Shown here piece after piece: positions 3,791-27,627 of a DNA stretch of 64,000 nt. Within the stretch, counting starts at the first letter, position 1; each line of letters starts with the position of its first letter. Below the pieces are notes generated by a model. That model did no database searches. It saw only the letters and a list, made by a program, of their open reading frames with translations, and was not told where the DNA came from. A program made the translations under genes and the position numbers. Origin of the DNA: Candidatus Wolfebacteria bacterium (GTDB lineage Bacteria > Patescibacteriota > Minisyncoccia > UBA6257 > UBA9933); contig JANLIR010000005.1 in the NCBI GenBank assembly GCA_024654025.1, positions 1,174 to 65,173 of the forward strand. The letters run 5' to 3'.

Positions 3791-5125
3791 TTAAGAATGA
3801 ATAGACGTTATTTCTTTAAAGCTGGCTTTTTCCGGATCGAATTTAAGCGGAACCGTTCCTAGAGGCCCGTTTCTGTGTTTGGATATTATGATTTCGGCGG
3901 TATTTATTTCTTCAGGCGAAGGATTTAATTTATCGCGATCTTTCCGGTAAATAAACATAACCACATCCGCATCCTGCTCCCAAGAACCCGTTTCACGAAG
4001 ATCCGATAAGCGGGGGATTTTAATTTCCCTTTGGTCCACAGCCCTGTTTAATTGCGATACCGCTAAAACCGGAACGTTTAATTCTTTGGCAAGGGCTTTT
4101 AGTCCATGGCTTATTTCGGTAAATTGTTGGACGATGTTTTCAGAATTGGAACTAGACGTTATTAATTGAACATAATCAATAACAATAAGTCCTAAGCCGT
4201 GTTCCATTTGCATTCTCCGGCCCATTGACCTTAGCTGTAAAAGCGTTGGCGATGGCGTATCGTCTATGATAATCGGCATTGTTGAAAGCCGGTCAAGCGC
4301 TTCGCGGATCATTTCGAATTCAATTTCATCGGTTAACCGCCCGGTTCTTAACCGCCATAAATCAACCTGCGCTTCTGCCGCGATAAGCCTATCAATAATT
4401 TGGTCTTTGGACATTTCTAAAGAAAAAATTGCCACAGGCACGCCGGCTTTTGAAGCGTTTCGGACAAAATCAAGAACAAGCGAGGTTTTTCCCAAGGATG
4501 GCCTTGCTCCTAAAATAATCAAATCGGATTTTTGAAATCCCGAAAGATATTTATCAAGTTCGACAAATCCGCTTGTCACTCCGCGCAACCCCCTTTCTCC
4601 CCGGTTCATTTTTTCGATTCGCTCGTACGCCTCGCTCAAATGTTCTTTGACAAGAGAATAAGTTGGTAAAAGTGATTTTTGGCTGATTGAAAATATTTTT
4701 TGCTCTATTTTGTCCAAAACATTTTCGACATCTTCCTGATTATTGAAGGCTTGTTCGGTAATTTCTCCCGAAACTTGTATTAAGTCGCGCAGTATTTTTT
4801 TCTGATGAACAATTTTTCCATAATGGAAAACATGGGCGCTTGAAGGCACCATATTTATCAAATCGGTAAGATAAGTTGATCCGCCGGCATCAGTAAGCAA
4901 GTTTTTATCTTTCAGTTTATTGGTGACTGTTAAAATATCAATCGGTTCCGATTTTTTGAAAAGCTCTATTATAGCGGCGTAAATCTTTGCGTTAGCCGGC
5001 TGATAAAAATCTTCGGCGGCGATTGAATCCGCCACTTTGATAATGGCGTTTCCGTCTATCATCAGCGCGCCTAATAATGATTTTTCTGCCTCCAAATCTT
5101 GTGGAGGAATTTTTATTATGCTCAT
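3791..5125 (-). CDS. dnaB: replicative DNA helicase DnaB
   Basis: Walker A motif GARPSLGKTSLVLDF and DnaB-like N-terminal and C-terminal domain organisation. Confidence 0.9.
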   Translation of the reverse strand: MSIIKIPPQDLEAEKSLLGALMIDGNAIIKVADSIAAEDFYQPANAKIYAAIIELFKKSEPIDILTVTNKLKDKNLLTDAGGSTYLTDLINMVPSSAHVFHYGKIVHQKKILRDLIQVSGEITEQAFNNQEDVENVLDKIEQKIFSISQKSLLPTYSLVKEHLSEAYERIEKMNRGERGLRGVTSGFVELDKYLSGFQKSDLIILGARPSLGKTSLVLDFVRNASKAGVPVAIFSLEMSKDQIIDRLIAAEAQVDLWRLRTGRLTDEIEFEMIREALDRLSTMPIIIDDTPSPTLLQLRSMGRRMQMEHGLGLIVIDYVQLITSSSNSENIVQQFTEISHGLKALAKELNVPVLAVSQLNRAVDQREIKIPRLSDLRETGSWEQDADVVMFIYRKDRDKLNPSPEEINTAEIIISKHRNGPLGTVPLKFDPEKASFKEITSIHS

Positions 5126-5141
5126 TTTGTAAATTTTAACT

Positions 5142-6518
5142 TCAACGCTTGGTTACGAACGGTCCCAGCGGCGTATCCTTTATTAAGTATCCTAAACGTT
5201 CTATTTTAATTCTCAAGCGGTCGGCGGGGACAAACTGTTTATTTTGCCTCGATAACTGCCTTTCCTGGGCTAATTTCGCTATTTTTAGGGGTATTTCTGT
5301 AGAAGCGTAGTTTATTTCAAATAGTTTTAAAAGCTTGTTTATAGACGTTTTTATCGCTATCGCTTCTTTTTTTGAAAGCTTCCATAATTTGGGGTTTATT
5401 TGGTTTATGAGATTAAAAATTTCTGATAGCGCCTTAGGAGTGTTGAAATCGTCGTCCAGCGCTTTTTTAAAATCATTTTCGAATTTTTCTAATATTTTTT
5501 TTATGTTTGTTCCGCCCTTTTTATTTACGGCGTTTAACTCCACAAATTTTAAAGTTGTTATAAAATCTTCAATATTTTTTAGAGATTTTTTTGCCGACGC
5601 TAAAACTTCATCGTTGTAATTAATAGGGGAACGGTAATGATGGGAAAGCGCAATCATTCTTAAATCGCTGCTGGAATTTTTTTTCAGGAATTCGCGGATA
5701 GTTATAAAATTATTCAAGCTTTTGGACATCTTGTCGCCGTTGATAAGCAAAAAGCCGGTATGCATCCAAATTTTCACGAACGGTTTTTTCCCTGAAGCCG
5801 ATTCTTGTTGGGCTATTTCCGATTCATGATGGGGGAATTTTAAATCGTTTGCTCCGCCATGAATATCGTATTGGGGACCGAAAAATTTTTCGGTTATTGC
5901 CGTATCTTCTATGTGCCAGCCTGGCCTGCCCCAACCCCAAGGCGAATCCCAGCCAATGTTTTCTTTGGTTTCTTTCCAAAGCGCAAAATCAAGCGGATCT
6001 TTTTTTTGCGGGTCTTGTTCAATTCTGTATCCATGCCTTAGTTCGCTTAAATTTTGTTTTGAGAGATTGCCGTAATTAGTGAATTTTTTAACCTGGAAAT
6101 AAACTCCGTTTTTTGTTTCGTAAGCGAAGTTTTTTTTCAAAAGAACGGCGATTTGTTTTTGAATTTCTTTGATATATTTGCTGGCAGGAGCGTATTTATC
6201 AACCGAATTTATATTCAGCGCTTTTATGTCTGTGTAATATTCCTTTTCAAATTGTTTCGCCAGTTTTTCGGGTCTGATATTTTTGTCTTTTGCCCTGTTT
6301 ATGATTTTATCGTCAATATCGGTTATATTTTGCAAATAAAAAACCTTATTTTTTAAAAAACGAAGGTATTTAACAAAACTATCAAATATTATGTAGGTCC
6401 GGGCGTGTCCTATGTGCGAATAATCGTAAACCGTTGGCCCGCAAACAAAAAGCTTAAGGCCGTTTTTTGGTTTTTTTACCGCTATTTTTTTGCCGCTAAG
6501 AGTGTCTAAAATGCGCAT
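5142..6518 (-). CDS. cysS: cysteine--tRNA ligase
   Basis: CGPTVYDYSHIGHAR (HIGH motif) and KMSKSLNNF (KMSKS motif), with the class I aaRS layout. Confidence 0.9.
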   Translation of the reverse strand: MRILDTLSGKKIAVKKPKNGLKLFVCGPTVYDYSHIGHARTYIIFDSFVKYLRFLKNKVFYLQNITDIDDKIINRAKDKNIRPEKLAKQFEKEYYTDIKALNINSVDKYAPASKYIKEIQKQIAVLLKKNFAYETKNGVYFQVKKFTNYGNLSKQNLSELRHGYRIEQDPQKKDPLDFALWKETKENIGWDSPWGWGRPGWHIEDTAITEKFFGPQYDIHGGANDLKFPHHESEIAQQESASGKKPFVKIWMHTGFLLINGDKMSKSLNNFITIREFLKKNSSSDLRMIALSHHYRSPINYNDEVLASAKKSLKNIEDFITTLKFVELNAVNKKGGTNIKKILEKFENDFKKALDDDFNTPKALSEIFNLINQINPKLWKLSKKEAIAIKTSINKLLKLFEINYASTEIPLKIAKLAQERQLSRQNKQFVPADRLRIKIERLGYLIKDTPLGPFVTKR

Positions 6519-6611
6519 GAATAATTATTGAAGGATTATTTAGAGTTTATTTTAAAATTAGCCCTTTCGCAAGCTGGCGCTTTCGCGATTAAATGGTAAA
6601 ATATTTATATT

Positions 6612-7736
6612 ATGGATCAAGATTTGTATCCAATTTTTGTGATTGTGATGGCTTTGCTGTTAGCCGTAGTGTTTGCCGGGCATTATCTTATTTACTATTC
6701 AACAGTTAAATTTTTTTCAGTTGCAACCGCGCAAACAAAAGCGATTTTGGGGCTAGTCCTTTTAGGACTGGCGCTTAGTTTTTTTGTAACGTCAATCCTG
6801 GCCCGTCTAAGCGAAAATTTTGTAACCAGAACGCTTTATTTTTTATCAACTTTATGGCTTGGCGTGGCAACAACACTACTCGCTGTTTTTATCGCCAGTT
6901 GGGTTGTAATTTGGATTTCCAAATACTTTAGCTGGCAGATTAATTTAATTGCTTTAGGCGTTGTGGCTTTAATATTTTCATTCGCGTATTCGGCGTATGG
7001 AATTTGGAACGCGTATAATCCGGTCATAAAAGAAATTACCGTAAACATAAAAAATCTTCCGCCCCAATGGAAAGACAAAAAAGCCGCCCAACTTTCCGAT
7101 GTTCATTTAGGCCACGTTCTAAGAGCCGGGTTTATGCAAAAAGTAGTTGACGAAACTAATGCTCAAAAACCGGACATCATTTTTATTACCGGTGATTTGT
7201 TTGACGGAATGGACGGCGATTTAGCGCAACTCGCAAAGCCTTTAAGTAATATTAAAGCGCCGCTCGGAACTTATTACGTAACCGGGAATCACGAAACTTA
7301 TTTAGGAGTTGAAAATGCTTACTCTGCTTTAAAAACTACTCCTGTCAAAACTTTAAAAGACCAGCTAGTTAATATTGACGGCATGCAAATAATCGGAATT
7401 TCTTATCCTGAACGGGGATTTTCAAAAGACATAGGCCAGGTTATTAAAAATTTAGCATATTTTAATCCGCAAAATCCGTCTATTCTTTTGTGGCACGACC
7501 CCACAAAGATTGACCAGGTAAAACAAGCCGGCGTTAGTCTGCAATTATCCGGGCATACTCATCACGGCCAAATTTTCCCAATTAATCTTGTTTCGCGTTT
7601 AGTATACGGAAAATATTATACCGGCCTTCATCAAGAAGAGAACTACTCGATTTATACTTCAAACGGCGTCGGCGTTTGGGGTCCCACTATGCGCACCGGC
7701 AGTCGTCCGGAAATTGTTATTATAAAATTTAAATAA
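6612..7736 (+). CDS. membrane-anchored calcineurin-like metallophosphoesterase
   Basis: N-terminal transmembrane helices followed by LSDVHLGH...ITGDLFDG...GNHE metallophosphatase motifs. Confidence 0.7.
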   Translation: MDQDLYPIFVIVMALLLAVVFAGHYLIYYSTVKFFSVATAQTKAILGLVLLGLALSFFVTSILARLSENFVTRTLYFLSTLWLGVATTLLAVFIASWVVIWISKYFSWQINLIALGVVALIFSFAYSAYGIWNAYNPVIKEITVNIKNLPPQWKDKKAAQLSDVHLGHVLRAGFMQKVVDETNAQKPDIIFITGDLFDGMDGDLAQLAKPLSNIKAPLGTYYVTGNHETYLGVENAYSALKTTPVKTLKDQLVNIDGMQIIGISYPERGFSKDIGQVIKNLAYFNPQNPSILLWHDPTKIDQVKQAGVSLQLSGHTHHGQIFPINLVSRLVYGKYYTGLHQEENYSIYTSNGVGVWGPTMRTGSRPEIVIIKFK

Positions 7737-17787: not shown

Positions 17788-18003
17788 GCGGGTGTAGTAT
17801 AGTGGCAATATACGACCTTCCCAAGCCCCGCACCAAAGAAAGATATTGAGCATAATCTTGCGGGTATAGTATAGTGGTAGTACGCGACCTTCCCAAGGTT
17901 GAAGCGTGGGTCCGATCCCCATTACCCGCTCATAAAAAGCAAGCAATCTTTCTTTTGGTGACGGGGCAAGGTTGAGACGAGGGTTCGATTCCCTTCACCC
18001 GCT
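17788..18003 (+). tRNA. split/interrupted tRNA-Gly(CCC): 5' half 17788-17824, 3' half 17970-18003, separated by a ~145-bp insert
   Basis: The 5' half carries the acceptor strand GCGGGTG, a D-arm, the anticodon stem CGACC and the loop TTCCCAA. The 3' half carries GGTTG, a variable loop AGAC, a T-arm GAGGG-TTCGATT-CCCTT, the acceptor strand CACCCGC and a discriminator U. Joined, they give a canonical 71-nt tRNA. Confidence 0.5.
17860..17930 (+). tRNA. tRNA-Gly(CCC), intact and nested inside the split tRNA-Gly
   Basis: 71 nt with acceptor GCGGGTA/TACCCGC, loop TTCCCAA (anticodon CCC, U33 present) and discriminator U. Confidence 0.75.
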
Positions 18004-18038
18004 CATGAAGTGCCGGGAATAAACAGAAAATCACAACT

Positions 18039-22263: not shown

Positions 22264-23238
22264 TTATACCATAAATTTATTAATTTTATCCATAAGAATA
22301 AGCCACGTTTTAGCCGACATCAAATCAGATCTTATTTCTTTGGATCCTTTAAATCCGGAAATATAGCCCTTTAGGTATTTTTTTACCATATTGATACTCC
22401 GCGTCTTGCCGTAACATTTATTGAATAATTGTACGTGAAATTTTAATAATTCCAGCCTTTCCTCTAAAGAAATAGTTGCGAAATCTTTACTTTCGTTGAA
22501 AAACCACGGATTGGACAAAACCGCCCTCCCAATCATCACGCCGTCAACTCCGTAAGTTTTCGCTTTTTCATAAGCGTCTTTTGAATCGTTTATATCTCCG
22601 TTTCCCAAAATTAAAGTTTTGCTTTTATGATCATTATTATATTTCTTGGCGATTTTGACCCCTTCGCCGATCGCGTCCCAACCCGCCGGAACTTTTGACA
22701 TTTCTTTTTTTGTCCGGCCGTGGATTGTTATTGTCGCAGGTTCAGCTTTTAAAAGATAGAGTATCCATTTTTTAATAATATTTTTATCATAACCAATTCT
22801 GGTTTTAACTGATACCGGAATTTTACCGGCGCCTTTTTTCGTAGCCTCAATAATCTTTTGCGCTAAAAGGGGATTAAGAATAAGCTCTGCGCCGGCTCCG
22901 GCTTTAACTACTTTTTTATCCGGACAACCCATATTTATATCAATACCGTCAAAGCCCAGCTTAGAAATAATTTTTGCCGATTCGTAAAATTTTTCCGGAT
23001 CAGTGCCCCAGATTTGAGCCACAATCGGCCGTTCTTTTTGGGAAAATTTCAAATATCGGCGTATTAATTTTTCTCTCGATTCTTTATGGGTAAGTCCGTC
23101 AACCGAAACAAATTCCGTAAACATAACGTCAGGTTTTCCGCATTTGCAGACCACTTGCCTAAAAACGGTATCCGTTACGTCCAGCATGGGCGCCATAACT
23201 AAAATCGGCTTTCTTATTTTTTCCCAAAAATTATTCAT
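22264..23238 (-). CDS. dus: tRNA-dihydrouridine synthase
   Basis: MAPMLDVTD, IDINMGCP and VSVKTRIG motifs of the Dus TIM barrel. Confidence 0.85.
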   Translation of the reverse strand: MNNFWEKIRKPILVMAPMLDVTDTVFRQVVCKCGKPDVMFTEFVSVDGLTHKESREKLIRRYLKFSQKERPIVAQIWGTDPEKFYESAKIISKLGFDGIDINMGCPDKKVVKAGAGAELILNPLLAQKIIEATKKGAGKIPVSVKTRIGYDKNIIKKWILYLLKAEPATITIHGRTKKEMSKVPAGWDAIGEGVKIAKKYNNDHKSKTLILGNGDINDSKDAYEKAKTYGVDGVMIGRAVLSNPWFFNESKDFATISLEERLELLKFHVQLFNKCYGKTRSINMVKKYLKGYISGFKGSKEIRSDLMSAKTWLILMDKINKFMV

Positions 23239-23316
23239 ATTTAAAAAGTAAGCTAATTTTTAAAATTAGCGATTTTTTGGAGTTTTGTCCATCAAATAAA
23301 ACTAAACACGGTTTTT

Positions 23317-23712
23317 TTATATTATAATTTCCTTTATTTTCTTTCCAATTTCTTTTGGATCCGAATAAAAAATAATTGAAGCGGCAATTCCTTTAAGCGT
23401 GGTGGAAATTTCCGATCCGGATACCGCGATAACATAAATCGGCTTGTTTTTTGCGTACGCATATCCGGCCTCTATTCCTAATCCCGTTCCTTTTTCGGAA
23501 AATTCTAAAATTAAAATATCGCAATCATCTATTTGTTTGAAAGATAATCGCATAAGCTCTTTGGGAGAATATGTTTTATTACCCCAATCTTCAAAATCTC
23601 TAGCCATTATTACGGTCTCTATTCCGTTTTCTTTTAAAGACTCTGAGATATCTTCGATTAATTTTCTGTTTCTGCCGTCAGAATAAAATTTATGCGCTAA
23701 ATAAGCTTTCAT
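23317..23712 (-). CDS. nucleoside 2-deoxyribosyltransferase-like protein
   Basis: Small Rossmann-like protein with the GLGIEAGYAYAKNKPIYVI segment typical of the PF05014 family. Confidence 0.55.
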   Translation of the reverse strand: MKAYLAHKFYSDGRNRKLIEDISESLKENGIETVIMARDFEDWGNKTYSPKELMRLSFKQIDDCDILILEFSEKGTGLGIEAGYAYAKNKPIYVIAVSGSEISTTLKGIAASIIFYSDPKEIGKKIKEIII

Positions 23713-23719
23713 AAAAAAT

Positions 23720-25501
23720 TTATTTTGCTTTTGACTTGTCGGACTTCGTTAAAAACTGTTTTCTTAACCGAACGCTTTTCGGGGTGATTTCCAGATATTC
23801 GTCTTCGGCCATAACCTCAAGCCCGCGCTCAATAGTAAGCTCAAAAGGAGGCGTAAGAACTATCGCTTCATCGGAACCGGACGCCCGCATGTTAGATAAT
23901 TGTTTTCCTTTTGTCGGATTTACGTCCATATTAATTCCTTTTGATGTGTTGCCGATAACCATACCAACATAAACGTTTATCCCTGGATTAATATAAAGCA
24001 TGCCGCGTTCTTGAAGCCCCCACAGCGAATATCCTAAAACTTTTCCGTTTGCCATAGAAACCATTGATCCCAAAGTCCTTCTGCGAATTTCTCCGGCGTA
24101 TGGTTTGAATCCCAAAACGCGCGAAGACATAATTCCTTCTCCTTTTGTATCCACCACAAATTGATTTCTATATCCCAAAAGTCCGCGTGTCGGGCCTTCA
24201 AACGTTAATCTCATAATATCAGCGTGCTGAAAAATATTTTTTAGCACAAACGCGCGCGTGCCCAAACGCTCGATAATCGTGCCTTGAAATCTTTCAGGAG
24301 CGTCGATAATAACCTCTTCAAACGGCTCGAGTTTCACGCCGTTTTCTTCTTTGGTAATTACACGCGGTTGAGAGACTTGAACTTCGTATCCGGCGCGCCG
24401 CATATTTTCCAATAAGATCGCGATATGGAGTTCTCCGCGTCCGTAAACCTGAAATATATCCGCCGTGGAAAATTCCACGCGTAAACCGACATTTACTTCA
24501 AGTTCGCGCTTCAAATATTCTCTAATCTCGCGAGAGGTTATATGTTTTCCTTCCCGGCCCATAAAAGGGGAGTTGTTAACCAAAAAATTGAGCGTGATGG
24601 TCGGTTCGTCAATCGCGATAGCCGGAAGCGGCTCTGCGTTTGCGTCGTTTGTTATAGTTTCGCCGATGTCGATATCGGGAATTCCGGCAATAAGCGCGAT
24701 ATCGCCCGCCTCTGCCTCTGTTGAATCTATCCGCTCCAAACCGTCAAAAGTAAAAATCTTCGTGAGTTTTCCGGAACGAATTTCGCCATCAGGTTTTTTA
24801 ATAAATATATTTTCACCCAATTTAAGAACGCCTTCGTACACGCGTCCTACAGCCATGCGTCCTATAAAATTGTCGTAGGCGAGATTGAACGGCTGAAACC
24901 TAAGCGGTTTTTCTTTAAGCGCGCCAGACGAAGCGCAAGGAACGTGAGAAAGAATAGTTTCTAAAAGCGGCGTGAGATCTTTTGATTCATCGGTTAATTT
25001 AAGTTTCGCGATTCCTTCGCGGCCGATTGCGTATACGATTGGAAAATCTTCTTGTTCTTTATTCGCTCCAAGTTCTATAAAAAGCTCAAGGACTTGTTCT
25101 TCGGCGTGCCCGGGGTCTGCCGCTGATTTGTCTATTTTATTTATTACGACAATCGGCTTTAATCCAAGTTCCAAAGATTTTTTTAAAACGAACCGAGTTT
25201 GCGGCATCGGGCCTTCTTGAGCGTCCACAACAAGAAGCACCGAATCAATTGAACGCAAGACACGTTCGACTTCTGAACCGAAATCGGCATGGCCGGGAGT
25301 GTCAACAATATTTATTTTTGTGCCTTTATACATAATCGCCGCGTTTTTTGAATAAATAGTAATTCCGCGTTCAAGTTCAAGAACGTTCGAATCCATCGAA
25401 ACCCCTTCTTTAAAAGCGCCTGTCTGACGCAACAGGGCATCGGTCAAAGTTGTTTTGCCGTGGTCAACGTGAGCGATGATTGCAATATTTCGTATTTCCA
25501 T
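23720..25501 (-). CDS. typA: translational GTPase TypA/BipA
   Basis: AIIAHVDHGKTTL, DTPGHADF and NKIDK motifs; EF-G-like domain order. Confidence 0.9.
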   Translation of the reverse strand: MEIRNIAIIAHVDHGKTTLTDALLRQTGAFKEGVSMDSNVLELERGITIYSKNAAIMYKGTKINIVDTPGHADFGSEVERVLRSIDSVLLVVDAQEGPMPQTRFVLKKSLELGLKPIVVINKIDKSAADPGHAEEQVLELFIELGANKEQEDFPIVYAIGREGIAKLKLTDESKDLTPLLETILSHVPCASSGALKEKPLRFQPFNLAYDNFIGRMAVGRVYEGVLKLGENIFIKKPDGEIRSGKLTKIFTFDGLERIDSTEAEAGDIALIAGIPDIDIGETITNDANAEPLPAIAIDEPTITLNFLVNNSPFMGREGKHITSREIREYLKRELEVNVGLRVEFSTADIFQVYGRGELHIAILLENMRRAGYEVQVSQPRVITKEENGVKLEPFEEVIIDAPERFQGTIIERLGTRAFVLKNIFQHADIMRLTFEGPTRGLLGYRNQFVVDTKGEGIMSSRVLGFKPYAGEIRRRTLGSMVSMANGKVLGYSLWGLQERGMLYINPGINVYVGMVIGNTSKGINMDVNPTKGKQLSNMRASGSDEAIVLTPPFELTIERGLEVMAEDEYLEITPKSVRLRKQFLTKSDKSKAK

Positions 25502-25754
25502 AAAAAATAGGCCTCCAGGCCGATAAAAAATAATTATAATACAACTTCAAAATTTAATCAAGGCTTATTTCTGCCTTATTTCCTCTGCGAGAAAATAAAG
25601 TAAGAGGTAAGAAAAGAGAATGCGATTAATCTTATCCGCAGATTAGTTAAACAATATATCTAATGAAATTGGCTCTGACATATTTTATAATATTTCGCTA
25701 CCGGGCTAGGCATTCCTACATTTTTAACGCAGAACCTTACGATTCCGCCCTGAG

Positions 25755-25825
25755 CTGCGGGGCTAGGACTCGAACCTAGATGACATGATTCAGAGTCATG
25801 TATCCTACCGTTAGATGACCCCGCA
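25755..25825 (-). tRNA. tRNA-Gln(CTG)
   Basis: On the minus strand: TGCGGGG-TC-ATCT-AACGGTA-GGAT-A-CATGA-CTCTGAA-TCATG-TCAT-CTAGG-TTCGAGT-CCTAG-CCCCGCA-G. U1:A72, anticodon CUG and U33 are all present. Confidence 0.8.
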
Positions 25826-25871
25826 GCTCAGGAAAGAATTCCATCAAGCCATTTTCTGCCTTGTCCTGATT

Positions 25872-26066
25872 TTAAAAACTTTCCCGTTTTATTGCTTCAG
25901 ATCGCGTAGCGTATTGTTCTTTATAAATAAGCATCCAAGGCTTTCTTCCGCTAGTATACCTGCATTTGCCTTTATTATGTTCGTCTACTCTTTTTACCAC
26001 ATTATCTGTTGAGCCAATATATCTATTATTATGACTTGAGCTTAAAATAACATAAACATAAAACAT
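25872..26066 (-). CDS. GIY-YIG nuclease-domain protein (YhbQ/UPF0213-like), possibly C-terminally short
   Basis: YVYVILSS..RYIGSTDNVVKRVDEHNKGK...SGRKPWMLIYKEQYATRSEAIKRE aligns across the GIY-YIG core. Confidence 0.6.
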   Translation of the reverse strand: MFYVYVILSSSHNNRYIGSTDNVVKRVDEHNKGKCRYTSGRKPWMLIYKEQYATRSEAIKRESF

Positions 26067-26084
26067 ATTAGAGCAGGGATTCTC

Positions 26085-26175
26085 CGCCGGAGGCCTCGCC
26101 TGAGGCGAGTGCGCCTTTGGCGCAGAACCTAGATGACATGATTCTTAGCCGGAGGCTAATGCGCCTTTGGCGCAA
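26085..26175. repeat. run of five GC-rich tri-loop hairpins (6-bp stems) including two copies of GCGCCTTTGGCGCA
   Basis: On the + strand: CTCCG-c-CGGAG, CTCGCC-tga-GGCGAG, TGCGCC-ttt-GGCGCA, TTAGCC-gga-GGCTAA and GCGCC-ttt-GGCGC. A 21-bp copy of the internal segment of tRNA-Gln sits among them. Confidence 0.5.
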
Positions 26176-26208
26176 GAGTCCATAGTGCTACCATTACACT
26201 ACCCGGCA
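26173..26208 (-). pseudogene. tRNA-like 5' half (acceptor, D-arm and anticodon region, homologous to the tRNA-Gln 5' half) with no adjacent 3' half
   Basis: Minus-strand TGCCGGGTAGTGTAATGGTAGCACTATGGACTCTTG aligns with the intact tRNA-Gln 5' half TGCGGGGTCATCTAACGGTAGGATACATGACTCTGAA. A plausible acceptor 3' strand CCCGGTA lies about 480 bp away at 25699-25705. Confidence 0.4.
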
Positions 26209-26265
26209 ATACGAATATTCTACTGAAAATTCAATTATTTTCAACCCTGCTTAGTACAATTGGAG

Positions 26266-26295
26266 TTATCCACAAAATTTTGGGTTTTATCCACA
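26266..26295. promoter_or_regulatory. two perfect DnaA boxes (TTATCCACA) 21 bp apart, followed by an AT-rich tract
   Basis: TTATCCACA at 26266-26274 and at 26287-26295. Confidence 0.45.
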
Positions 26296-26598
26296 AGTTG
26301 CCCACTTTTTTTATTGAAACAGCAACTAATAGCCATATAATAAAAAGGTAATATAAAACATTATATGCCACCAAATAAAACGAAGGCGCTAACGTCGAAA
26401 TTGAGTAGAGGTTCTGTTTTTTTTCTGGCAATAATAAAATCGGTATTTTTTTACGGGAGCCCATTTTGCGGGCTTTTTTGTTTCTCTAAAAATAAAATAG
26501 CGAAAAGATTTTTTAATTAAAGGTCGGGAAAAATCAATAAAATTAAAAAGGTCGAAAGATACAAAATAAAAGGTTGAAATAAATTAAACAATAAAACA

Positions 26599-27627
26599 AT
26601 GAATAAAAAAATTTTACTAAGCGTTAGCGCGATTGTTGCGATTGTGGCGGTTGCCGCCGTGGCAACAACAGCATACTTTTCCGATACGCAAACAGCGACC
26701 GGAAATACTTTTTCGGCTGGAACAATTGAAATGCAGGTTAATTGGGACAAAACAATTCCAATCCAACTGGCGGACATGAAGCCGAGCCAGGTTGGATATA
26801 CCAATTTTACGGTACTAAATGTTGGCAGCGATCCGATTAACGTAACCAAGGAAATAAACGTTACTAATCGGGAAACAGTTGACGTTAATCGGCCAGAATG
26901 TATTGCCGAAGGAGGACAATGGACTAATGGCGAATGTTCAAATAATACTTCGAAAAACGACATTGATTCTGTGCTCCAATACGATTTATCGGTAAAAGTT
27001 TACAACACAAGCAGTGTATTAGCATGGAATCAAACATTGCGCGACATGGACAAAACAGTGGCAGAGCTCCAAGGACAAAAAATGTTTCTTGGTATGATTC
27101 CATCTGGCTGGCATATGGATGTGGTTGAGAGCTATCACATGAAAAGCGAGGCCGGCAACGAATATCAAAGCGATAAAATAACTTTTAATATCGTTTTAAC
27201 GGGAGAACAACTAAAGGGTACGCTGGTTATGTCCAATAAAGACCCGAATCGTCCGGTTACAGACGGCTGGTTTGTTTTGGGAACCAAAACCGGAACATTA
27301 ACATACGGCGTAAAGGACTCAACATTTAATTATAGCTTTACAGGAACTGCTCCGTTGGCGAGTACAGGCTATTCCTTGGTTATGTATGAAGAGCCGTTTT
27401 CCACTCCCTCTGCTTCAGGTTGGCCGAGAACTGTTAAAATTCTTGGCGCGGGCACAACAGACGGAAGCGGAGACTTAACTCTTAACGGTAATCCTGATAC
27501 CGGCGATATGCTTAATGCCAAAATTTGGCTTGTAAAAACCTCTGACTTGGTTGGCAGCACATTGAGCGGTTGGACTCCGGCTGACTATCTGTTTGAGACA
27601 GGAATGATTGATTACTACAAGTCATAA
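26599..27627 (+). CDS. TasA/camelysin-like secreted protein with a SipW-cognate signal peptide
   Basis: N-terminus reads MNKKILLSVSAIVAIVAVAAVATTAYFSDTQTATGNTFSAGTIEM, matching the YFSDTE..GNTF.AG signature. Confidence 0.65.
   Translation: MNKKILLSVSAIVAIVAVAAVATTAYFSDTQTATGNTFSAGTIEMQVNWDKTIPIQLADMKPSQVGYTNFTVLNVGSDPINVTKEINVTNRETVDVNRPECIAEGGQWTNGECSNNTSKNDIDSVLQYDLSVKVYNTSSVLAWNQTLRDMDKTVAELQGQKMFLGMIPSGWHMDVVESYHMKSEAGNEYQSDKITFNIVLTGEQLKGTLVMSNKDPNRPVTDGWFVLGTKTGTLTYGVKDSTFNYSFTGTAPLASTGYSLVMYEEPFSTPSASGWPRTVKILGAGTTDGSGDLTLNGNPDTGDMLNAKIWLVKTSDLVGSTLSGWTPADYLFETGMIDYYKS

Follow-up and report, generated by a model that had tools for sequence, protein, structure and literature searches.

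In a 64-kb stretch of DNA from a tiny groundwater Candidatus Wolfebacteria bacterium (contig JANLIR010000005.1; the whole stretch is called the window here) the resident tRNA-Gln(CUG) gene is broken, and its pieces enclose a small GIY-YIG nuclease gene together with a second, intact tRNA-Gln(CUG) gene. We think it probable that this is a selfish element of the homing type, which breaks a tRNA gene and supplies the replacement, and that the small element which entered the resident gene belongs to a widespread family. In its full form the element would comprise a double hairpin (DH) of about 30 nt at each junction, a gene for a GIY-YIG protein of 79 amino acids (aa) and an intact tRNA gene for the same isoacceptor as the one it interrupts. 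Only because the element supplies a tRNA-Gln would the host retain a working copy and the insertion be tolerable, the genome probably having few tRNA genes to spare.

The resident tRNA-Gln gene and its empty site

The locus is read on the minus strand of this AT-rich window (37-43% GC), and all positions follow the numbering of the window. It runs from a promoter-like site through a tRNA 5' piece, a first double hairpin (DH1), a middle piece, a second double hairpin (DH2), GAATCC with a leader, the open reading frame (ORF), the intact tRNA, a trailer and a decayed DH to a tRNA 3' piece (Table 1). The cargo of nuclease and tRNA lies in the T-loop, between C56 and G57, and DH1 stands alone in the anticodon loop. 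An earlier reading of this DNA, made from the sequence only, had described tRNA-like halves flanking a nuclease gene and an intact tRNA-Gln, and all of these parts are present, the outer 5' piece now being 26208-26175. Its proposal of a nuclease element of roughly 400 bp with a replacement tRNA holds in both respects, but the insertion point moves from the anticodon region, which contains only the 30-nt DH1, to the T-loop. Likewise its 3' remnant (25738-25699) does pair with the acceptor strand TGCCGGG, though the piece itself, aatgcctagcccggtagc, is confined to 25714-25697.

To which gene the outer pieces belong can be judged from uninterrupted relatives. The TypA protein of the window, sought as a means of locating sister contigs, is not on record, and synteny was obtained from metagenome DNA by an exact-pattern scan of contigs with 22 nt of the outer 5' piece, which gave 53 loci. 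L124 and L126, on independent metagenome contigs, each hold a tRNA-Gln(CUG) without interruption, which agrees with the outer 5' piece at 100% over its first 34 nt. The outer 3' piece can be aligned with the L124 tRNA at its 3' end, given a single additional base (g) and a single C-to-T substitution. The inner tRNA-Gln(CUG) is unlike this resident gene, with the acceptor TGCGGGG rather than TGCCGGG and 11 differences within the first 34 nt. On these alignments the outer pieces are the genuine resident tRNA-Gln gene.

L126 represents the empty site, because both of its flanks are shared with the window and its tRNA-Gln is uninterrupted. On the TypA side L126 1-2952 matches window 22596-25566 at 89% over about 3 kb, and on the upstream side L126 7390-7751 matches window 26175-26547 at 81% over about 370 nt. 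The site is therefore polymorphic for presence and absence, empty in L126 and filled in the window, L001 and L002, with flanks in common; L126 and the filled L002 stem from one metagenome. Comparison with a syntenic, uninterrupted tRNA-Gln, which the sequence-only reading had proposed, is thus provided by L126.

The outer copy is a mosaic, since its positions 35-54 carry inner-tRNA sequence whereas positions 1-34 and the 3' end are of the resident type. The middle piece is identical to 25772-25791 of the inner tRNA at 20 of 20 positions (blastn-short E 3e-7), and the alignment with L124 and L126 gives CCATCGAT as the resident sequence where the window has CATGTCAT. In L002 the T stem of the middle piece is back to the resident (L126) type. 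A repeat had been noticed here before, as 26126-26146 matching 25778-25798; it is real, but falls at 26125-26144 and 25772-25791 and is exact over 20 nt. The suggestion that 26121-26146 is chimeric is borne out, the segment being a mosaic, and the direct repeat cgcagaacct is found as aggttctgcg, which is the junction GGTTC/tgcg where the T-loop half meets the beginning of a hairpin module. In the outer copy the two strands of the anticodon stem, atgga and tcatg, are unable to pair, so this copy would be non-functional even after removal of the inserts.

Some 110 nt downstream of the intact tRNA-Gln of L126 there is a different YhbQ-type GIY-YIG gene of 101 aa (6933-7238, minus strand), with GC-rich flanks and a C-terminal tail (..PVLSEVEGSKV..) that looks repeat-encoded. 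It seems that tRNA-Gln attracts more than one GIY-YIG lineage.

Recurrence at tRNA genes in other genomes

The same association recurs over tRNA species and phyla. A scan of one genome per species gave 380 relatives of the nuclease, and the counts of loci below refer to the best 80 of these. Their host labels, taken from record titles and in the case of some third-party metagenome-assembled genomes (MAGs) apparently unreliable, are mostly Patescibacteria, but also Omnitrophota, Margulisiibacteriota, Ignavibacteria, Chlorobiaceae and Bacteroidetes. A tRNA gene lies on the same strand within 60 nt of the nuclease gene in 64 of the 80 loci, and in 6 others the contig ends less than 120 nt away from the ORF. 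As partners there are tRNA-Gln(CUG) (27), tRNA-Gln(UUG) (9), tRNA-Asn (10), tRNA-Ser (8), tRNA-Tyr (7), tRNA-Lys (2) and tRNA-Val (1).

Partial copies of the partner were found by comparing each tRNA with its own locus, within 600 nt. The 5' part is copied upstream in 50 of the 64 loci, with every piece 100% identical in 38, the 3' end is copied downstream in 26, and one or other kind is present in 58. In 33 of 52 cases the last 18 or 20 nt of the tRNA are missing from the 5' copy, which thus breaks off in the T-loop behind GGTTC, at C56/G57. Some subfamilies use other loops, namely the D-loop of tRNA-Ser(GGA), tRNA-Asn and tRNA-Val or the anticodon loop of tRNA-Gln(UUG), and in a neighbour-joining tree the proteins group by insertion loop and tRNA type.

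The arrangement tRNA(1-54)-DH-gaatcc..-nuclease-tRNA-..ggttc-DH-tRNA(55-end) is found in L036, L041 and, in decayed form, the window, and the right junction ..ggttc-DH also in L016 and L081. L016 and L012 have a DH at both junctions and the tRNA ahead of the nuclease. The internal remnants of L016, gaatccta and gtaggttc, have a T stem unlike that of the host tRNA gene and must therefore have travelled from an earlier host. Shorter forms lack the 3' copy (L029, L037 and others) or the 5' copy (L081); such forms could have arisen from the full one when the duplicated parts of the tRNA recombined. L002 has no DH at its right junction. Tandem arrays of tRNA 5' part, DH and nuclease occur in L008, L027, L060 (four copies) and L079, and in L026 a tRNA remnant interrupted by a DH is present as three units in tandem. 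Extra solo modules are present in the D or anticodon loops of upstream copies, as with DH1 of the window, which has anticodon-loop counterparts in L018, L066, L072, L073 and L076. In L006, L019 and L070 hairpins bear further hairpins inside their loops.

Two further observations concern other tRNA genes. L006 (3995-4198) and L024 (2427-2624) have genes of another, distant GIY-YIG family (36-38% identity) upstream of tRNA-Trp, with a 33-nt copy of the tRNA 5' part ahead of the ORF in L006 and an 18-nt 3' copy past the tRNA in L024. Solo hairpins with 3'-copy remnants also follow tRNA-Thr, tRNA-Arg and other tRNAs in several loci.

The double-hairpin module

The module ahead of most of the related ORFs consists of two 15-nt hairpins, such as tgcgccaRaggcgca followed by ctcgcctccggcgag. 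It is placed exactly at the break in the tRNA, whose sequence then continues over about 6 nt (GAATCC) ahead of the ORF. By a strict criterion, 53 of 88 ORFs were preceded within 90 nt by at least two GC-rich perfect hairpins, compared with 4 of 342 control windows from the same loci. A catalogue compiled with a regular expression held 88 distinct candidates, about 60 of them true double hairpins after a pairing filter, and GGTTC-DH-GAATCC is the dominant context among them, with gaatcc behind the DH at most loci of the T-loop type. The sequence-only reading had mentioned GC-rich hairpins, which are indeed there; beyond that they are a conserved DH that marks the junctions in dozens of unrelated genomes, and for this reason it is not incidental sequence.

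Comparison of 49 distinct modules shows an unvarying inner GCC/GGC and covariation of the three outer pairs, with compensatory changes at 7 of the 12 pairs and 90 cells changed on both sides. The percentage of paired positions is circular as a measure, because the modules were chosen by a pattern that requires pairing, but the variety of compensatory pairs is not affected by this. Loop 1 ends in A (NNA) in 60 of 61 modules and loop 2 starts with T (TNN) in 57 of 61, from which it follows that the module has dyad symmetry and reads alike on both strands. G-U pairs in the stems are as rare as mismatches. Together the symmetry and the scarcity of G-U pairs hint at recognition as DNA rather than as RNA.

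Within the window, perfect 15-nt palindromes with a GC core number 4 in the locus and 3 in the remaining 63 kb, with 0.28 expected per shuffle. A pattern search combined with this palindrome scan places the module solely at this locus, which disposes of a dispersed repeat in the window; nor does it have the character of a miniature inverted-repeat transposable element or repetitive extragenic palindrome, as no target duplication flanks the modules and no dispersed copies lie within the 64 kb. A known RNA family or ribozyme was likewise rejected, since Rfam, its group I introns and ribozymes included, gave none at E ≤ 10 over 25300-26600 besides tRNA and chance miRNA matches. The pairing of each hairpin is internal, and a bulge-helix-bulge reading of the borders was therefore rejected. 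When the DH was removed in silico, an ARAGORN-detectable tRNA came back in only 3 cases among 65 DH-bearing loci. Two of these, in L043, rest on diverged remnants, the intact tRNA-Tyr of that locus being split by an N gap, and the idea that the interrupted copies are complete genes was dropped; the third is L059.

The GIY-YIG protein

The 64-aa ORF of the window, recorded at NCBI in a Candidatus Wolfebacteria MAG (P0003), scores 55.3 bits against PF01541 and its frameshift-corrected 79-aa form 58.3 bits (cut-off 22.6). The GIY-YIG gene that had been assigned to 26066-25872 is thus upheld as such, but this copy is frameshifted and the family length is 79 aa, a length of about which nearly all of the 131 close relatives have. 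The ORF is cut off at residue 64 because one A is missing from an A-run (gaaaag has become gaaag); the -1 frame resumes the family C-terminus ...FLKSGQGRKWLDGILS and reaches a TGA at 25830-25828, 2 nt ahead of the tRNA. L001, with 98.5% DNA identity over 459 nt, has an intact 79-aa ORF, and P0001, an intact member of the family, shares 96% identity with the protein of the window. From this comparison the nuclease of the window may be inactive through the frameshift, the alternative being a homopolymer sequencing error.

The residues Y5, Y16, G18, R26, E29, H30, N31, T38, P43, R61 and K66-S67-G68-x-G70-R71 (KSGxGR) are invariant, and E62 is conserved in at least 90% of 32 relatives; the catalytic residues are among those conserved, and the GIY-YIG motif residues (the two Tyr of GIY and YIG, the Arg and the acidic residue of the KRE motif) precede the frameshift in the copy of the window. 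A profile search of 1.84 billion cluster representatives found 5,667 at E ≤ 1e-10. By sequence, the nearest solved structures are UPF0213 proteins 1zg2 (E 1.7e-11) and 1ywl (2.2e-11), followed by Slx1 chains (1.6e-5 to 1.4e-4). An AlphaFold2 model with a predicted local distance difference test (pLDDT) score of 94.6 has strands at residues 2-9, 15-20 and 44-52 and helices at 23-31, 55-66 and 68-78, with a beta-beta-alpha-beta-alpha core, and in Foldseek it is matched better by 1zg2 and Slx1 than by the I-TevI catalytic domain. These sequence and fold comparisons place the 79-aa family in the UPF0213/Slx1 branch of the GIY-YIG superfamily. Neither Pfam nor the alignment nor the model has a separate DNA-binding domain or any second domain in the 79-aa protein. 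The description as a classic homing endonuclease is on that account an analogy, for a single-domain protein without a DNA-binding domain that is closer to UPF0213/Slx1 than to I-TevI.

A phage origin of the family was rejected for its near-absence from viral contigs: IMG/VR gave only 3 weak matches against 380 in genomes, and PHROGs and PADLOC weak motif-level matches only. One IMG/VR contig classed as viral (L136) carries a 46%-identical relative at 2001-2234 with a tRNA 3' half ahead of the gene. After the gene there is tRNA-like sequence in which a single hairpin, tccgcctcaggcgga, separates the D-arm region from a second copy of the 3' half found upstream.

A proposed mechanism

The scheme that would best fit these observations is homing. 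The nuclease would cut the DNA of an uninterrupted tRNA gene in a region coding for a loop, recognising either the tip of an extruded hairpin or cruciform, as might suit an Slx1-like enzyme without a DNA-binding domain, or a short motif such as Y/GAATCC. The break would then be repaired by copying from the element-bearing copy, and adjacent target sequence would be co-converted, which could leave a mosaic middle piece. Repeated cutting of the intact inner tRNA might build the tandem arrays of tRNA 5' part, DH and nuclease, as in the amplification of a tRNA segment by SegB (see below). Transcription of the composite would probably start from the resident tRNA promoter.

Several findings weigh against this scheme. 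A DNA-binding domain is missing, which is unusual for a site-specific homing enzyme. The inner tRNA retains the presumed target, GGTTCGAGTCC, so unlike classical homing elements this one is not evidently immune to its own nuclease. On the downstream side of its tRNA, L126 departs from the window by 4.4 kb of other genes and so gives no clean comparison of a single event, and the 80 loci are the best-scoring of 380 matches rather than a random sample. In most loci the inner tRNA is the same as the outer pieces, which also fits a mechanism that duplicates its target and imports no foreign tRNA. Simple homing leaves unexplained the duplication of the DH, its dyad symmetry and the conserved internal GGTTC and GAATCC, as well as the solo modules of D and anticodon loops and the fact that loops, those of other hairpins included, are preferred. 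These features point to a structure-directed cut or to an integration step based on the DH.

A bolder proposal, which we put forward tentatively, is that the units of DH and 79-aa protein are an unrecognised class of mobile element. Its minimal, structure-specific Slx1-like nuclease would cut the hairpin or cruciform tips of tRNA genes (D, anticodon and T loops) and of its own hairpins, the element would move by a mechanism distinct from classical homing and from known transposases, and the obligate rescue tRNA would drive horizontal replacement of tRNA genes over Patescibacteria and other phyla.

Alternative explanations

The alternative that survives best keeps the element mobile but makes the GGTTC-DH-GAATCC unit the site that is acted on. 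In one version a dimeric nuclease would make staggered cuts at both DH borders, and integration with fill-in would duplicate the DH; in the other, recombination between two DHs would integrate or excise a circle with nuclease and tRNA. Within each of L016, L036 and L041 the DHs at the left and right junctions have the same sequence, GGTTC and GAATCC are conserved internally when other remnant sequence is not, and the L016 remnants of a tRNA with a different T stem moved along with the element. Solo DHs between tRNA parts in L026 and L058 resemble excision footprints, insertions are found in D, anticodon and T loops and within the loops of other hairpins (L006, L019, L070), the module has its dyad symmetry in the loops, and the nearest solved relative of characterised activity is the structure-specific nuclease Slx1. 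Against this, no circular junction or excision product was observed, the right junction of L002 is without a DH, and the mosaic middle piece in the window and L002 resembles gene conversion. No GIY-YIG enzyme is known to work as a transposase by itself. Such a process would amount to a new chemistry of transposition or integration that targets the tips of hairpins, and we regard it as unlikely.

That nothing here moves, and that a tRNA was duplicated locally in tandem and decayed beside a housekeeping gene of the YhbQ/UPF0213 type co-transcribed with tRNA-Gln, is very improbable. Small UPF0213 proteins are widespread and have no assigned function, and identical inner tRNA and outer pieces, as in 38 loci, are what duplication gives. 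The partner tRNA nevertheless varies among Gln, Tyr, Asn, Ser, Lys and Val, one loop position is broken across phyla, and L016 has remnants of a different tRNA inside it. The outer pieces of the window have the sequence of the intact tRNA in relatives and it is the inner tRNA that differs, and an empty site, on the syntenic contig L126, comes from the same metagenome as a filled one (L002).

We give slightly less credit still to an explanation at the level of RNA, in which the DHs are introns or processing signals of functional split tRNA genes and the protein acts on RNA. Prokaryotic Slx1-like GIY-YIG domains occur fused to a TrmH-type tRNA methyltransferase, for which a role in RNA metabolism was suggested (PMC1564403), and genuine tRNA introns at 35/36 are found in Patescibacteria (PMC13011429). 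However, the outer anticodon-stem strands of the window do not pair, most interrupted copies have no 3' or 5' partner, and the rare restorations by DH removal include no real tRNA gene in L043. An intact tRNA of the same anticodon adjoins the nuclease gene in 64 of 80 loci, the Rfam scan found no other family in the region, and G-U pairs are scarce in the stems. Finally, a chimeric contig that joins repeats has next to no credibility: such repeats do break assemblies, and many related loci have N gaps or lie at contig ends, yet the order of the parts is identical in independent assemblies, samples and pipelines (L001 from ENA, L002 from JGI, the NCBI record of P0003 and dozens of MAGs). The non-mobile gene, the role in RNA splicing and the assembly artefact are all rejected on this evidence.

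Further features of the locus

The coordinates of the parts are collected in Table 1. No second promoter-like site was found on the minus strand between TTGAAA-16-TAGAAT and the inner tRNA; that site is probably the promoter of the resident tRNA-Gln and now drives the entire composite. The insert holds only the 64/79-aa ORF and the tRNA, with no gene for a tyrosine or serine recombinase. The outer 5' piece gives a sub-threshold partial match to the Rfam tRNA model (22.7 bits, E=0.065), and DH1 is inserted between sequence positions 34 and 35, which are Sprinzl 35/36.

Table 1. Parts of the tRNA-Gln locus in the order in which they are read
Feature	Position	Strand	Remarks
Promoter-like site TTGAAA-16-TAGAAT	26217-26244	-	10/12 matches; ends 8 nt 5' of outer tRNA piece
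Outer 5' piece A', positions 1-34 of resident tRNA-Gln(CUG)	26175-26208	-	TGCCGGG acceptor strand, D arm, anticodon-stem 5' strand, 'ctCT'
Solo double hairpin DH1, 30 nt, tgcgccaaaggcgca + ttagcctccggctaa	26145-26174	-	Anticodon loop, directly 5' of GAATC
Middle piece, tRNA positions 35-54, gaatcatgtcatctaggttc	26125-26144	-	Ends at T-loop break GGTTC
Left junction module DH2, 42 nt, tgcgccaaaggcgca + ctcgcctcaggcgag + partial gcctccggcgga	26083-26124	-	T-loop, GGTTC-DH-GAATCC
GAATCC T-loop/T-stem remnant b' and 10-nt leader ahead of ATG	26067-26082	-	
GIY-YIG nuclease gene, 79-aa family	25828-26066	-	ORF of the window has 64 codons, 26066-25872, TAA at 25874-25872
Intact inner tRNA-Gln(CUG), replacement copy	25754-25825	-	ARAGORN; Rfam 58.8 bits
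Trailer with internal T-loop remnant a' (..aaggttc) at its end	25732-25753	-	
Decayed right-junction hairpin module tgcgttaaaaatgtagg	25715-25731	-	Close relative L001 retains tgcgccaaaggcgcg there
Outer 3' piece B' aatgcctagcccggtagc, 18 nt	25697-25714	-	T-loop end, T-stem 3' strand, acceptor 3' strand and discriminator of resident tRNA-Gln

The leader and trailer of the inner tRNA extend its acceptor stem by 7 bp (cctgagc/gctcagg), inside an inverted repeat (25742-25762 and 25819-25839). Acceptor stems extended by 7-16 bp through flanking inverted repeats were seen in 19 of 69 nuclease-adjacent tRNAs as compared with 4 of 44 other tRNAs, and some of these 4 adjoin other elements. Such repeats occur in the window, L003, L004, L011, L017, L036, L063 and others, with the complementarity conserved and the sequence not.

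Sequence beyond the right junction differs among the close relatives L001, L002 and the window. In the window a 44-nt remnant, LTNLRIRLIAFSFL, of a gene for a DedA-like membrane protein lies at 25609-25652 (minus strand), most of the gene having been lost beside the element; the gene is complete in L126 (3069-3674) and L001 (654-1049).

The tRNA-Gly locus

A second interrupted tRNA gene lies on the plus strand of the window at 17788-18004, where a tRNA-Gly(CCC) is split in the anticodon loop by a 145-nt insert (17826-17970). The insert contains an intact tRNA-Gly(CCC) (17860-17931) between inverted repeats of 19-21 nt, ccccgcaccaaagaaagat and atctttcttttggtgacgggg, with CAAG at both junctions, and its removal in silico yields a canonical tRNA-Gly(CCC). 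In L139 the outer tRNA is uninterrupted beside a 97%-identical MraY and gives the empty site. L140-L142 have the same outer tRNA and the same split point with a different inner tRNA-Gly and different 21-nt inverted repeats, and L143 and L144 have one outer tRNA-Gly half only. As read from these sequences, the Gly insert is also a mobile element that breaks and replaces. The sequence-only reading had taken it for a nuclease-less relative of the Gln element; the two share the logic, with a true insertion, a replacement tRNA and an empty site, but common descent is not evident, the Gly insert having long inverted repeats, no DH, no gene and an anticodon-loop site.

The T-loop of the inner tRNA-Gly, TCCGATC (17908-17914, plus strand), has a C where U55 is near-universal, and its closest counterpart, in L144, is TTCGATC; the replacement tRNA may be slightly defective, or the base may be a sequence error. 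L143 also encodes, at 4507-7080, a gyrB product in which Pfam matches an intein splicing domain and also, though weakly, an HNH endonuclease domain. This intein is another selfish insertion in these genomes.

Implications and comparison with known systems

If the homing scheme is right, it gives a role to thousands of small genes annotated as 'GIY-YIG nuclease family protein' and without a function (the 5,667 cluster representatives); if the proposal of an unrecognised class is right, this would be the first biological role for part of the large UPF0213-like family. The tRNA genes of genome-reduced bacteria would be hot spots for an element that breaks and replaces, by which foreign tRNA genes could be installed, and tRNA annotation is affected through fragments, pseudo-tRNAs and contig breaks. 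The Gly locus suggests that more than one kind of element uses this logic. As a candidate enzyme, the protein would be a very small nuclease with a 30-nt hairpin partner and, as putative target, a universal T-loop sequence.

The closest functional parallel is SegB, a free-standing GIY-YIG homing endonuclease in the tRNA gene cluster of T4-like phages (PMC2330249; PMC13096335), which was found by experiment to drive tandem amplification of a tRNA segment (PMC13096335). In both systems a GIY-YIG gene sits among tRNA genes, and SegB, by cutting the DNA of tRNA genes in a competitor genome, favours the inheritance of the tRNA region it belongs to; the association with tRNAs is statistically strong. 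SegB differs in being phage-borne and in lying between tRNA genes, not inside one, with no displaced halves and no double hairpins. It is also a longer protein than 79 aa, with a DNA-binding part.

In the fungus Allomyces, Paquin, Laforest and Lang (1994, 2000; the later paper is cited in PMC3787672) reportedly described an atp6 insert that carries a replacement gene end, and GC-rich double-hairpin elements in fungal mitochondria. By that description, an insert encoding an endonuclease breaks an essential gene and brings a copy of the displaced part, the old part being left as a remnant, and short mobile GC-rich elements of two hairpins occur in the same genomes. There, however, a protein gene in an organelle is the target, the endonuclease is larger and a link between the hairpins and the junctions is not established, the comparison being by description only.

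Islands and prophages of the integrase type use tRNA genes as integration sites and bring along a copy of the 3' end. They too restore the interrupted tRNA and leave a displaced fragment that marks the far junction, but the present element has no integrase, is about 0.4-0.5 kb long, breaks the T, D or anticodon loop and duplicates the 5' part or the whole tRNA. Archaeal (Thermoproteales) non-canonical tRNA introns occupy D-, anticodon- and T-loop positions and are proposed to spread between tRNA genes. They share with the DHs a short length of 20-40 nt and several tRNA loop positions; unlike them, they form a bulge-helix-bulge and are removed by the splicing endonuclease, whereas the DH borders are unpaired and the copies here incomplete.

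Group I introns within patescibacterial tRNA genes (PMC13011429) share the phylum and the use of tRNA loops, and their 35/36 position is the DH1 site of the window. They are self-splicing ribozymes, mostly without endonuclease genes, and restore the tRNA in RNA, whereas the element of the window has no ribozyme and the tRNA is restored in DNA by a second gene copy. GIY-YIG genes are among those apparently transferred from Patescibacteria to other bacteria (PMC12455944).

For the protein itself the best match in sequence and fold is the UPF0213/YhbQ-Slx1 branch of single small GIY-YIG domains (PMC1564403; PDB 1zg2, 1ywl, 4xm5, 6sei), from which the 79-aa family differs by its own C-terminal FLKSGQGRKWLD helix and GKCRYTSGRKPW motif. 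Slx1 is a structure-specific nuclease for branched DNA, an activity that by analogy would fit cutting directed at loops or hairpins. In the literature searched, neither a tRNA-gene context nor a biochemical function is described for bacterial UPF0213 proteins. A GIY-YIG/double-hairpin element in tRNA genes is likewise not described in the full-text literature searched, in which subscription journals are under-covered, so that its absence is no proof. What distinguishes the element from the nearest known systems is the combination of a one-domain nuclease, double hairpins at the junctions, tRNA loops as targets and a whole rescue tRNA, which none of them has, and there is a substantial chance that the mechanism itself is new.

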